Assembly: GCF_058153355.1 (NCBI RefSeq)
Contig: NZ_CM177019.1
Length of the DNA: 64,000 nt
Strand: one strand, 5' to 3'
Numbering within the stretch: position 1 is the stretch's first letter; every line of letters begins with the position of its first letter. The notes beneath the pieces were generated by a model. It ran no database searches. It worked only from the letters and a program-made list of their open reading frames with translations, and had not been told where the DNA came from. This document shows positions 5,186 to 9,382 of this stretch, piece by piece. The position numbers and the translations under genes are program-made.

Positions 5186-6508
5186 TTATAACCGATGAAA
5201 TTTTGCCAGTAAGGCCAGTGAAAATGTTGTCAGCAAAATGGTAATGACTGCGTAAATATACACTCCTGACCATTCCCAACTGTTTTTCACCATAATAACT
5301 GGAAGCCCTGCCATTGCCGCGCCTAAATAACTAAACAAGCCCCTGAATCCAGTAATGGAACCTGCCGCATCTTTATGCGTAACATCAAGACACCCGACAG
5401 CGAATAACATATGCGGTCCATACAATGCAAACCCCATGATTGTAAACAGAATAGCCGTTAATGTGTAGGAGACGTCCTGCACCAGCGGTACGAGAACGAT
5501 GCAAATACATAAAGCGATGGCAAAGATTAATCCGGTCATCCAGCGGTTACTTTTAAACATGAAATCGGACAAGTACCCCGCCAGTAATCCCCCAGCAAGT
5601 CCACCTGCTTCAAACCAGGATATAATGGAGTTCGCTTTAATCAGGCTCCAGTTATGAACCTGAGAATAATAAATTTGTGGCCAGTCATTGAGGATGGTGC
5701 GTGCAATATAGACCGACATATCCCCGAGGATAATGAGCCAAACTAATGGGTTGGTAAGAATATATTTAACGAATATTTGCCAAAAACTGAGATCAACCGG
5801 ACTTGCTTTAACTTGTGCAAGTTCTGTCGGGTCGTTGCGCCACTTACCGACGTTAGGCAAACCGAGCGTGCCGGGACGATCTTTTATCGTAAACAAGGCA
5901 ACAATCCCCATAATCAGTGAGATTACACCCGGAACATAAAAGCCCATCTTCCAGCTGCCACTAAAAGCAATAGCAAAGCTTGTCAGGAGAGGCGCAAGAC
6001 TACCGCCAATATTATGCGCAGCTTCAACAACTGCCCACCAGCGTCCGCGTTCATTTTTCGAGAACCACGAGGCCATAATTTTTGCCATTGGCGGAAAACT
6101 GGTACCCTGGAGAATAGCATTAAGGCTATACAGGATATAGAACGCAGCAACGCTGTCTGAAAAACCGAAAAGAATGTTAACAATACCGACGCCAATAAGT
6201 ACGGGGCCAGTCATCGCTCGTGGGTTAATTTTATCGACTAACATGCCACCTACAAACTTCATGGAGCCATAAAGAATGTAAAAGACCGACGACATGATAG
6301 CGAAATCTTGTGCGGTTAATGACGTATCCGTTAACATCGCTGGCATGGCCGCAGAGAAATTCTTGCGGGTTAAGTAAAATACGGCATAAGAGATAAATAC
6401 AGAGGTGATGATTTCAATGCGAAATTTTTTATAAGTATGATCAACTTCTTCTTTTGGTTTGACCACAGGTTGGTCGGCCTGGCTGAAAATAAATTTTTTC
6501 AAACTCAT
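5186..6508 (-). CDS. MFS transporter, organophosphate:Pi antiporter (GlpT/UhpT/PgtP-like) family
   Basis: 440-aa ORF with about 12 TM segments; N-terminal region YAVFYLTRKNFSAAMP matches the GlpT/UhpT-family motif; in an AT-richer accessory block. Confidence 0.85.
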   Translation of the reverse strand: MSLKKFIFSQADQPVVKPKEEVDHTYKKFRIEIITSVFISYAVFYLTRKNFSAAMPAMLTDTSLTAQDFAIMSSVFYILYGSMKFVGGMLVDKINPRAMTGPVLIGVGIVNILFGFSDSVAAFYILYSLNAILQGTSFPPMAKIMASWFSKNERGRWWAVVEAAHNIGGSLAPLLTSFAIAFSGSWKMGFYVPGVISLIMGIVALFTIKDRPGTLGLPNVGKWRNDPTELAQVKASPVDLSFWQIFVKYILTNPLVWLIILGDMSVYIARTILNDWPQIYYSQVHNWSLIKANSIISWFEAGGLAGGLLAGYLSDFMFKSNRWMTGLIFAIALCICIVLVPLVQDVSYTLTAILFTIMGFALYGPHMLFAVGCLDVTHKDAAGSITGFRGLFSYLGAAMAGLPVIMVKNSWEWSGVYIYAVITILLTTFSLALLAKFHRL

Positions 6509-6540: not shown

Positions 6541-7428
6541 CTATAATTTTTCTTCTATAAAAAAGAGAAGCGACTCGAAACCATTAAAATTAATCTGGTC
6601 AGCAATTTTTTCCCGGGTTTTAGGTTTTGCTTTCCATGCCACGCCATTTCCGGCATGCAAAAGCATAGGAATATCATTGGCACCATCTCCACAGGCAATG
6701 ATGTTTTCACGGCAGATAGCTAACTCTGTCGCTAAATTTATCAGGGTTTGCTTTTTCTTTTCTGCATTCATAATAGGTAAGGTAATTGTATCAGTTAACA
6801 GATCTTCCTTAATGCGCACAGAGTTAGAAAATGCAAAATCAAGTTGATATTTTTCCTTCAATCGCTCAGTAAAAATATCCAAACCTCCAGATATAATTGC
6901 CGTCTTGAATCCTTTTTCTTTTAGTATGGGAAGAATAGTTTCAAGACCTGGTGAAAGAGTCATCTGTTCACAAACTTGATGCAATATATCTTTATGCGTT
7001 CCTTTAAGCATGGCAATTCGCCGGGTAAAACTGGTATCAAAATCGATTTTCCCTTCCATCGCTTCACGGGTCAGTGCGGTGATTTTTTCAGAGATGCCGA
7101 GTCTACGGGCTATTTCATCGACACCTTCTTCTTCAACAAAGGTGGAATCCATATCAAAGGCAATAATTCCCTGATCCGGTAAGACCCTGGGTTTACGGAA
7201 AAAATCGAATTGATGATTATCAGCACGGTGACGTAAACCAGCATAAAAAGCAGGGTTGGTAACATCATCTGGTAATACTAGCTTTAGATACTCTTTATTT
7301 ATTTTCCCACTGTAATTCGTTGTTAGCGAAAACACCGAGGGGGAAATCTTTAAATGTTGCAGATAATCTTCCAGACATTTTTGGGTGATGTCGATGCCTG
7401 TTGGCGACAAGAAATAAATAATCGTCAT
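6541..7428 (-). CDS. HAD-superfamily phosphoserine phosphatase (SerB paralogue)
   Basis: 295-aa ORF with HAD motif I (IIAFDMDSTF), EGKIDFDTSF, AIISGG and GDGANDIPML; aligns by eye to E. coli SerB along its length. Confidence 0.85.
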   Translation of the reverse strand: MTIIYFLSPTGIDITQKCLEDYLQHLKISPSVFSLTTNYSGKINKEYLKLVLPDDVTNPAFYAGLRHRADNHQFDFFRKPRVLPDQGIIAFDMDSTFVEEEGVDEIARRLGISEKITALTREAMEGKIDFDTSFTRRIAMLKGTHKDILHQVCEQMTLSPGLETILPILKEKGFKTAIISGGLDIFTERLKEKYQLDFAFSNSVRIKEDLLTDTITLPIMNAEKKKQTLINLATELAICRENIIACGDGANDIPMLLHAGNGVAWKAKPKTREKIADQINFNGFESLLFFIEEKL

Positions 7429-7520
7429 TTACCGCTCCTTTTTATCTGCAATGATTATAATAAGATTTCGTAGAAGCTGATGTATCTGACAATCACAGTT
7501 GTGAATGTTAAATAAAAGAT

Positions 7521-7585
7521 AAAAAAGTACTTTTTTTGATACTTTGAAATAATAAGATACTAAAAGTACCATTTTTGATATCTTT
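7521..7585. promoter_or_regulatory. Divergent promoter region of the island with a direct repeat (AAAAGTAC-N6/7-TTGATA)
   Basis: aaaagtactttttttgatac (7523-7542) and aaaagtaccatttttgatatc (7562-7582), two near-identical copies about 40 bp apart in an AT-rich intergenic region between divergent operons. Confidence 0.3.
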
Positions 7586-7617
7586 ACCAGGATATAACGA
7601 ATAACTATTTTTCAACG

Positions 7618-8991
7618 TTGAAGGAATCATTTACAAATATGGAAAGCTGCGTAGATATATTCAAGATAGTTATTGGTCCATCCAGTTCCCGCACAGTCGG
7701 GCCAATGCGTGCGGCTTATAATTTTGTGTCACAATTGAAACAGCGAGAAATGTTACCTTTGTTGCGGAAAATTGATGTCGAACTTTATGGTGCGCTGTCA
7801 TTAAGCCGCAAGTGCCATAATGTTGATGTGGCGATTTATCTCGGTTTGCAAGGACACTTACCTGACAGCGTTGACATTCGCATGGAAATGTCCGCCATCA
7901 GGCGTGCAGAAACTGAGGCGACGCTGGAAGTTATGCCTGGTGTCAACGTCAGTGTATCCATTCTTTCTAATCTACAAGCGCATCCGGGGCACCCTTATGC
8001 GATGACATTTCGTGCCAGAGATGACTGGTTTACACTTTATGAAGAAACCTGGTTTTCTATCGGCGACGGTCAAGTGCTAAAAGCAGGAGAGGCGATTATT
8101 CCTCCATCAGTCACTCCACATCCTTTTGAATTCCAGAACGCAAACGAATTATTAAAACTTTGTCAGCAAAACGGATTATCTGTCGCGGCATTAATGATGA
8201 AAAACGAACTGCACTGCCAGACAGCAGCTTTTTTGCATGACGATCTTCATAAAAAATGGGAAGTAATGAAGGATGCGGTTTATCGCGGGATGCATACAGA
8301 AGGATTACTTCCAGGTCCGTTTCAGGTTAACCGTCGTGCCTGTGCTTTATATAAATCGTTGCAGTCAAAGGGGTTTTCCAATGACTTCCTGACTGCGCTC
8401 AATTGGGTCAATACTTTTGCCATTGCGGTGAGCGAAGAAAATGCTGCGGGTGGACGTGTCGTGACAGCACCCACCAACGGCGCGAGCGGTATTATCCCGG
8501 CTGTACTGTGCTGGTATGATAAATTCATTCACGAGCTTGATACATACTCCGTTACCCGCTTTTTACTGACCGCTGGTGCCATCGCCATTCTGTTCAAAAA
8601 AAATGCCTCTATTCTGGGTTCTGAAGTTGGATGTCAGGGGGAAATAGGTGTTGCCAGTTCAATGGCGGCAGCAGGATTAGCAGAACTTATGGGCGGGTCA
8701 GTGGCTCAGGTACTTAGCGCGGCAGAAATTGCGATGGAGCATCATTTAGGTTTGACCTGTGATCCAGTTGGCGGGCAGGTACAAATTCCTTGTATTGAAC
8801 GAAATGCTATTTCAGCTGTGAAAGCTATCAACGCAACGACGATGGCGTTGAGTCGCATAAGCGAGCCGTGCATTACGCTGGATGAGATAATTTCCGCGAT
8901 GTATGAAACCGGAAAGGATATGAGCGCTAAATACCGTGAAACTTATCATGGCTGTCTGAGCAAATTGCAGCCAAGAAAAAAGGATGCGTAA
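7618..8991 (+). CDS. L-serine dehydratase (L-serine ammonia-lyase, Fe-S type, single-chain SdaA-like)
   Basis: 457-aa ORF; N-terminal [20 protein letters not shown] matches the SdaA/SdaB/TdcG signature; true start may be the Met at 7639. Confidence 0.9.
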
Positions 8992-9382
8992 GATGAAATA
9001 TAATACGATGAATAACAACGAAATTATTTTATCACTGTGCGCTCGCATTAAAGAAACGCGTATCTCATTATCATTGACCCAACAGCAGTTAGCCGAGCGT
9101 GCATTGGTGGGCATAGCAACGGTCAAGCGGATTGAAAAGGGGGGAAGTTTAAATCTTGATACTCTCATTTCTCTTCTGCGCGCGCTGAATAAATTGCAAA
9201 ATCTCGATGCCATATTGTTCGAAGCAGAAATGCGTAATTTCAACGAAAATAGTTCCAGCGGCGAAGGGGCAGGGCGACTACAGGTACGCCAGCAACTGAC
9301 AGATTTAAACCAGAAGTCTCCAGCCCCGCACGCAGATGACCATAATTTTAGTACGGCGCTGGAAAATACCCTCTGCTGGTGA
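8984..9382 (+). CDS. XRE-family helix-turn-helix transcriptional regulator
   Basis: 132-aa ORF with HTH region LSLTQQQLAERALVGIATVKRIEKG; overlaps the 3' end of the serine dehydratase gene, suggesting co-transcription. Confidence 0.7.
   Translation: MRKMKYNTMNNNEIILSLCARIKETRISLSLTQQQLAERALVGIATVKRIEKGGSLNLDTLISLLRALNKLQNLDAILFEAEMRNFNENSSSGEGAGRLQVRQQLTDLNQKSPAPHADDHNFSTALENTLCW

Follow-up and report, generated by a model that had tools for sequence, protein, structure and literature searches.

Two conserved operator-like elements in a four-gene island of Escherichia coli, with the co-resident XRE-family protein as their probable binder

Introduction

The operators bound by the Cro and CI proteins of phages 434 and lambda are short dyads whose A/T-rich centre is not directly contacted, and several such operators lie between divergent promoters, the regulator controlling its own transcript. 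Among metabolic genes of the Enterobacteriaceae, sdaA, sdaCB and tdcABCDEFG are under global regulators such as Lrp, CRP, FNR, IHF and TdcA, and serine catabolism is important to these bacteria in the gut. HipB, a cooperative binder of the dyad TATCCN8GGATA, has a C-terminal tail that is unstructured, ends in a conserved Trp and acts as a degradation signal for Lon (PMC3376134).

Here we describe two 20-bp elements (sites 1 and 2) between the divergent operons of a four-gene island, found in a 64-kb stretch of DNA that we refer to as the window, together with an XRE-family protein encoded by the island itself. This protein belongs to the same helix-turn-helix (HTH) fold family as the phage repressors, and 434 Cro matches its profile, but the island element is chromosomal, metabolic and non-phage; the phage operators are adjacent, whereas the island has two sites only, 39–40 bp apart from centre to centre, the first of which is a poor dyad. 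With the sda and tdc genes the island shares the enzyme class, and a paralogous locus in Klebsiella has a pair of transporter and dehydratase genes like sdaCB; the differences are a dedicated small XRE gene, a private motif, and repeats that lack any conserved CRP, FNR, IHF or Lrp consensus. HipB offers the nearest known parallel: the island protein also has a Cro/C1-type HTH and counts a HipB among its PDB relatives, the HipB dyad compares with (G)TATC-N6-GATA(C) in the island, and the tail of the island protein is of low confidence in the structural model and ends in an invariant Trp. Yet the island is not a hipBA system. Its dyad has a gap of N6, not N8, and half-sites without the second C; the HipB operator TATCC-N8-GGATA, allowing up to two mismatches, is absent from all 14 representative spacers compared below; the island holds no HipA-like kinase or toxin gene; and the genes presumed to be regulated are catabolic.

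Results and discussion

The island and its distribution

The host DNA is an E. coli chromosome, 99.7% identical to strain 2013C-4282 across 5.5 kb, in which the four genes form an insertion between cirA and yeiG (Table 1). GC content in windows along the island is 33–50%, mostly under the 47–57% of the flanks, and falls to 26% in the spacer between the two operons. Every family match of the MFS transporter scores under the equivalog cutoffs. Together, the antiporter-like MFS protein, the SerB paralog, the dehydratase and the regulator look like a module for phosphoserine uptake and catabolism; a search of the literature for the island or for a phosphoserine transporter cluster found no relevant study.

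The island occurs in 86 of 5426 complete E. coli genomes, in every case once and in the chromosome. Among Citrobacter koseri assemblies the regulator gene of the island is widespread, and the position of the module between cirA and yeiG is common to Citrobacter, Salmonella arizonae and diarizonae, Scandinavium and E. whittamii. The SerB-like gene has diverged at its start: the first 40 residues (window 7309–7428) are 62.5% identical between E. coli and E. whittamii, in contrast to the 95% identity of the neighbouring XRE protein between the same two species, and in other genera they are too diverged for tblastn (E limit 1e-5). In one further locus (L146 6001–6889, GCA_040775525.1) the SerB paralog is divided between two ORFs of 213 aa and 98 aa, probably by a frameshift or as a pseudogene, with both sites intact.

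Table 1. Features of the island and of the spacer between its operons (window coordinates).
Feature	Position	Strand	Remarks
MFS transporter, UhpC/PgtP/GlpT-like (resembles organophosphate:phosphate antiporters)	5186..6508	-	Leftward operon gene 2; family matches under equivalog cutoffs
SerB-like HAD phosphoserine phosphatase paralog	6541..7428	-	Leftward operon gene 1; TIGR00338, 207.6 bits, over cutoff
Conserved block ATTATAAT	7453-7460		Pairwise identity 0.82
Predicted leftward -10, TATAAT (SerB-like/MFS operon)	7454..7459	-	Consensus prediction
Third conserved block, alignment columns ATCACAG..TGTGAATG	7491-7507		Pairwise identity 0.81
The same block, ATCACAGTTGTGAATG	7492..7507	.	TCACA invariant in 14 representatives; also in L145
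Site 1, distal copy, AAAAGTACTTTTTTTGATAC	7523..7542	+	A-tract, weak left arm GTAC, T-run, right arm GATAC; matrix 28.3 bits
Best predicted rightward sigma-70 promoter	7544..7572	+	-35 TTGAAA 7544-7549, 17-bp spacer, -10 TACCAT 7567-7572
Site 2, proximal copy, AAAAGTACCATTTTTGATAT	7562..7581	+	Better dyad of the two; matrix 30.4 bits
L-serine ammonia-lyase, Fe-S type (dehydratase)	7639..8991	+	Rightward operon gene 1; TIGR00720, 547 bits
XRE-family HTH_3 regulator, 129 aa	8993..9382	+	Last rightward-operon gene; PF01381; candidate binder

Sequence and symmetry of the two elements

A preliminary description of this DNA had reported two near-identical elements about 40 bp apart in the spacer, and they are present there: sites 1 and 2, both on one strand, agree at 17 of 20 positions, with a distance of 39 bp between their starts. 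Two of its measurements are corrected here, as the gaps from aaaagtac(c) to ttgata are 5 and 4 bases long (part of the T run) and not 6–7, and the spacer is 210 bp long (7429–7638) and not 189 bp, the RefSeq start of the dehydratase being the ATG at 7639 and not the in-frame TTG at 7618. The sequence AAAAGTACNNTTTTTGATA, allowing up to three mismatches, occurs at two places only within the window, namely the sites themselves, compared with an expected 0.16 occurrences. A weight matrix built from the orthologous spacers scores the two sites at 28 and 30 bits, and the next best match in the window reaches 10 bits; the matrix is derived from these same sites, and the high scores of the orthologs are partly circular.

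Within each copy, four T's are flanked by the arms of an inverted repeat, (G)TATCA / TGATA(C/T); in site 2 of most orthologs the sequence reads GTATCA-TTTT-TGATAT. The pattern TATC-N6-GATA is found with at most one mismatch at site 2 in 13 of the 14 representatives and at site 1 in one, the left arm of site 1 being variable (GTAT, GTAC, GTGC, GCAT, GAAC and others). The motif as a whole is asymmetric, with an A-tract on the 5′ side only, lacking a mirror on the 3′ side, and a central T-run. The label of direct repeat given in the preliminary description is right in so far as there are two same-strand copies, but each of them holds an imperfect inverted repeat, (G)TAyC-N6-GATA, and a pair of partly symmetric sites in the same sense is a better description of the feature than a plain direct repeat. 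Arm positions are complementary in 85% of cells, compared with 25–46% when the register is slid. Covariation between the arms is no higher than in shuffles (0.160 vs 0.166, with 329 of 500 shuffles reaching the observed score and a single double change), and the arms are therefore kept as sequence, as in a protein-binding palindrome, and not as an RNA stem.

Conservation of the spacer

Conservation was assessed in an alignment of 21 distinct orthologous spacers from Escherichia, Citrobacter, Salmonella, Scandinavium and metagenomes, with column identity computed from 14 representatives. Mean pairwise column identity among the representatives is 0.79 for site 1 and 0.86 for site 2, and drops to 0.37–0.45 in three stretches beside and between the conserved blocks. 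The consensus of the element is AAArGTATyrTTTTTnATAy, that is, AAA[AG]GTAT[CT][GA]TTTTT[G/n]ATA[CT], within which TTTTT and ATA show no variation in the 14 representatives. Each locus has exactly two matrix matches, both on the strand of the dehydratase and 39–40 bp apart, and nothing further comes close in a matrix scan of the 64-kb window and of 5–12-kb flanks of the other loci. Even among eight E. coli alleles, which diverge from one another by as much as 5% over a 321-bp region, only three single-base changes fall in the sites, all of them in strain GF4-3. The preliminary description had proposed a search for the repeat at orthologous loci, and at every locus examined both copies are kept, as the best-conserved parts of the spacer.

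Scanning metagenomes with a degenerate two-site DNA pattern gave at least nine orthologous loci that keep the sites. The pattern has at least 120 metagenome matches, of which 111 listed ones are low-GC contigs with a paired score of at most 32 bits, compared with 53–63 bits for the orthologs, and no new gene context appeared among the matches listed. Four of the low-GC contigs (L033, L046, L050 and L078) carry repeats spaced by 38 bp, AGTTGTGCTGnTTTTGATAT, which match the pattern, are unrelated to the island and look like tandem or CRISPR-like arrays. By these sequence comparisons, we show the repeat to be under purifying selection and specific to this locus in the DNA examined, and it is close to certain that it is a functional cis-regulatory element.

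Two other blocks of the spacer are conserved (Table 1). In Escherichia and the C. freundii group the third block forms a palindrome, TCACA-N2-TGTGA; Salmonella has TATCACAGATATCAC in its place. Reading this palindrome as a CRP site was rejected: the order and spacing of the half-sites are wrong, and TCACA alone is invariant. The block may be the site of another factor or belong to the region upstream of the leftward promoter.

The candidate binder

The XRE protein has a Cro/C1-type HTH (PF01381) whose PDB relatives are 4ghj, 434 Cro and a HipB, and its single NCBIfam match is the HipB-type model TIGR03070, under the cutoff. Among orthologs the recognition-helix region, GIAT[IV]KRIEKG, is nearly invariant and W129 is invariant. 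The protein has no recognisable sensor domain; residues 93–119 of its tail have a pLDDT below 50, and the C-terminus reads ...LENTLCW. The stretch from about residue 80 to residue 129 (window 9230–9382) holds the conserved motifs GRLQVRQ and ALENTLxW, followed by the invariant Trp. An AlphaFold2 model made from a 12-sequence alignment has a mean pLDDT of 70 with the HTH region drawn as one long helix, a Foldseek search of the PDB with this model returned meaningless matches only (E ≥ 0.7), and we have made no use of a structural argument.

Close relatives of the protein (65–76% identity) are found only in Citrobacter, Salmonella (arizonae, diarizonae and some enterica), Scandinavium, E. whittamii and metagenome bins, and a scan of a genome collection with the XRE alignment gave 11 loci, every one with the same type of island. 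In E. coli both sites have GTAC and the protein is of the ALVGIATV variant. Co-variation between recognition helix and operator found no support, as locus L153 shares the E. coli variant ALVGIATV but has GTATC in site 2, not GTAC.

The motif and the XRE gene in three gene arrangements

Nearly all of the loci examined hold this cluster of four genes between cirA and yeiG, as in the window; as exceptions on position, the flanks of L010 differ, and L011 keeps the yeiG side alone. Two other gene arrangements are informative. In the arrangement seen in the window, MFS and SerB diverge from Sdh and XRE (MFS-SerB <> Sdh-XRE). In the second arrangement, represented by locus L145 (1–3048), SerB, MFS and XRE follow one another on one strand, the SerB protein being 52% and the XRE protein 41% identical, and a 77-aa ORF occupies the place of the dehydratase. 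L145 thus lacks an adjacent dehydratase; its contig ends 450 bp upstream of serB, so a more distant one may exist. Both sites are retained in this locus, at a spacing of 39 bp and with scores of 25 and 24 bits, and so is the TCACAG block.

The third arrangement is found on the chromosome of Klebsiella (L155–L158, e.g. CP003218.1), where a 146-aa XRE paralog, 42% identical, adjoins an operon of an SdaC/TdcC-like transporter and an L-serine dehydratase, with no SerB or MFS gene adjacent to these three. About 190 bp upstream of the operon lies TAAAGTATCATTTTTAATAC, which scores 26.3 bits, a value reached in 2 of 5000 shuffles of this 31%-GC region. A weak second element, AGTACTAATTTTGATGC, lies 38 bp off and by eye resembles E. 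coli site 2, and at −0.2 bits it is not significant. Relative to the operon, the strong element has its motif match on the opposite strand; read along the operon, it is GTATT-AAAAAT-GATAC: the central tract is inverted and the arms are kept, which hints that the arms are the recognised part.

The XRE gene is the sole component present in all three arrangements, the motif accompanies an XRE homolog in each of them, and the XRE subfamily was seen only at loci that bear the motif. A fragment of the Klebsiella XRE region has also been captured by an IncFIA resistance plasmid, pBH100alpha (L154, NZ_CP025254.1 39795–40235), where the regulator lies with RpiR and aminotransferase genes beside aph(3')-Ia and ISKpn26. 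No motif is present upstream of the XRE paralog on this plasmid; in Klebsiella the motif precedes the neighbouring transporter/dehydratase operon, which is lost from the plasmid copy.

Predicted promoters and a possible mechanism

The promoter positions given here are consensus predictions in 26%-GC DNA and should be read as such. The putative leftward −10 is matched by a promoter-like sequence in its column in 11 of the 14 representatives, and three invariant columns (7454, 7458 and 7459) correspond to T6, A2 and T1 of this minus-strand hexamer. The predicted rightward promoter matches the consensus at 9 of 12 positions, the sole such match in the spacer, and is identical across the eight E. 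coli alleles; its −10 column recurs in 6 of the 14 representatives, and its −35 differs between genera. Its predicted −10 falls within site 2, and site 1 ends one base 5′ of its −35. Another candidate for the rightward −10, TATTTT at 7606–7611, was dropped, since GAGTTT (or GAG-TTT) stands there in six of the other seven E. coli alleles compared.

We consider it probable that the two elements are operators of the island's own XRE regulator. The operator role that the preliminary description proposed for this protein gains from the conservation of both copies and from a motif that travels with the XRE family, and is weakened by the poor dyad of site 1. In the scheme that we infer from the sequence, which extends to the identity of the binder, its binding as a dimer, the positions of the promoters, repression over activation and the inducing signal, a dimer of the Cro-type protein would recognise the (G)TATC-N6-GATA(C/T) dyad around its A/T-only centre, and two dimers would occupy sites held 39–40 bp apart. 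In E. coli the proximal site would cover the best predicted −10 and the start of the dehydratase–XRE operon, and the distal site would abut the −35. The most likely action would then be negative autoregulation by promoter occlusion, as the XRE gene lies within the rightward operon and repression there would be autoregulation. A second effect, on the divergent SerB-like/MFS promoter, is possible. The predicted −10 of that promoter lies leftward of the sites at a distance of about 65–130 bp; relative to a putative leftward start near 7447, the sites would span about −76 to −134, and about −45 to −60 would be taken up by the TCACAG block. As the protein has no sensor domain, the inducing signal may act through the low-confidence, Trp-terminated tail. 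Some observations count against an XRE operator: the single orientation of the sites in all E. coli-type loci and the asymmetry of the motif are unexplained by a symmetric dimer alone. The spacing of 39 bp amounts to about 3.7 helical turns, which places the two sites on different faces of the helix.

Alternative explanations

The sites might instead bind a chromosomal factor common to these Enterobacteriaceae, such as a regulator that responds to serine or phosphate, or one of the nucleoid proteins (e.g. IHF, Fis, Lrp or H-NS), an alternative that we judge unlikely. The 26%-GC spacer, rich in phased A/T tracts, is typical territory of nucleoid proteins, the motif is asymmetric with a spacing that is not a whole number of helical turns, the L-serine dehydratase genes of E. 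coli are under global regulators, and both the E. coli-type and the Klebsiella loci have the dehydratase. But a comparison of the 14 representative spacers with 13 published regulator consensus sequences (CRP, FNR, IHF, Fur, PhoB, Lrp, ArcA, Nac, NanR, ExuR/UxuR, TyrR, CytR and ArgR), found no conserved match on the repeats; AT-rich weak matches of the ArcA/ArgR kind recur at 7498–7507, outside the repeats, and readings of the repeat as an IHF, FNR, PhoB, Fur, Lrp, Nac, NanR or ExuR site were rejected, as none fits. Against a shared factor stand also the lack of any extra matrix match in the window or the flanks, the restriction of near-identical 32-mers elsewhere in the 5426 E. coli genomes to the AT-rich coding genes leoC and toxB, the retention of the sites in L145 without an adjacent dehydratase, and a strict conservation of the TAT and ATA bases that is unlike H-NS or Fis sites. 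A less probable reading still takes the blocks for core promoter parts (−35, −10 and UP-like) of one or two tandem rightward promoters, the repeat reflecting two similar promoters. It draws on the TTGATA of each right arm, a 5/6 match to the −35 consensus, on −10-like left arms in site 2 (TATCAT/TACCAT) and, in the C. freundii group, in site 1 (TAGTAT), and on a TTGATG-16 bp-TATAAA arrangement seen by eye after the weak second element in Klebsiella. Against it, key positions of the −10 are lost: the T at position 6 has become C in Salmonella and ENA11, and E. coli site 1 reads AAGTAC. The base of site 1 that varies most is the G of TTGATA, a position that −35 sequences normally conserve strongly. 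Moreover, no partner hexamer at 16–18 bp is kept between genera, the invariant T-run and ATA would have no role in a plain promoter, and a sequence-conserved dyad is not a promoter property.

That the elements act as RNA, forming small hairpins of the type GGUAUCA-UUUU-UGAUACC within an extended leader at the 5′ end of the dehydratase mRNA, as attenuators or as protein-binding stem-loops, seems very improbable to us. The complementarity of the arms would suit such hairpins, and a promoter upstream of site 1, if there is any, would put both elements in the transcript; against them are compensatory changes that do not go beyond chance, broken pairs in several species (e.g. the E. coli GTAC and a G-to-A change in C. 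koseri), the lack of any Rfam match to the elements at E up to 1 and of any terminator-like site in the spacer, and a strong Klebsiella element that lies on the strand opposite to the operon. We give the least credence to a functionless chance repeat in low-complexity AT-rich DNA. Homopolymer runs do supply 9 of the 17 matching positions in a spacer of such low GC content, yet a direct repeat of 17/20 arises in just 3 of 1000 dinucleotide-preserving shuffles of that spacer, and the repeat is kept across at least four genera while surrounding spacer columns fall to about 40% pairwise identity.

Implications

If the XRE protein is the binder, the regulatory principle is a textbook one, in which a locally encoded HTH protein controls a divergent promoter through dyad sites, with no new mechanism. 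A bolder proposal, which we put forward only tentatively and with more doubt than conviction, is that these XRE proteins form an undescribed family dedicated to L-serine/phosphoserine catabolic operons of Enterobacteriaceae, that a shared two-operator module has moved between at least three arrangements, and that the proteins, lacking a ligand domain, receive their signal through a disordered tail like that of HipB (with a terminal Trp in the E. coli type), which could be proteolysed in a regulated manner or captured by an island enzyme. Confirmation of the XRE operators would provide a mutable switch, made up of two 20-bp sites and one 129-aa protein, over a four-gene accessory island. In view of the role of serine catabolism in the gut, a defined pair of operator and regulator would make the conditions of island expression directly testable, and interest is added by an island that is itself uncharacterised and by XRE regulators that seem to form a family linked with loci for serine dehydratase.

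Other sequence features of the spacer

Several minor features of the spacer may be recorded separately. Just 3′ of site 2, an ATCACGG box (columns 7583–7591) is semi-conserved in most genera except Escherichia and Salmonella, and with the TGATA of the site it makes up a weak CRP-like sequence, TGATA-N6-TCACG, which lies over the right edge of site 2 in 8–13 of the 14 representatives, E. coli not among them. A 10-bp sequence, ATAATAAGAT, is repeated exactly: it occurs at 7457–7466, over the predicted leftward −10, and again at 7549–7558, between the two sites; at the Klebsiella locus, AATAATAAGAT is likewise found between the two elements.
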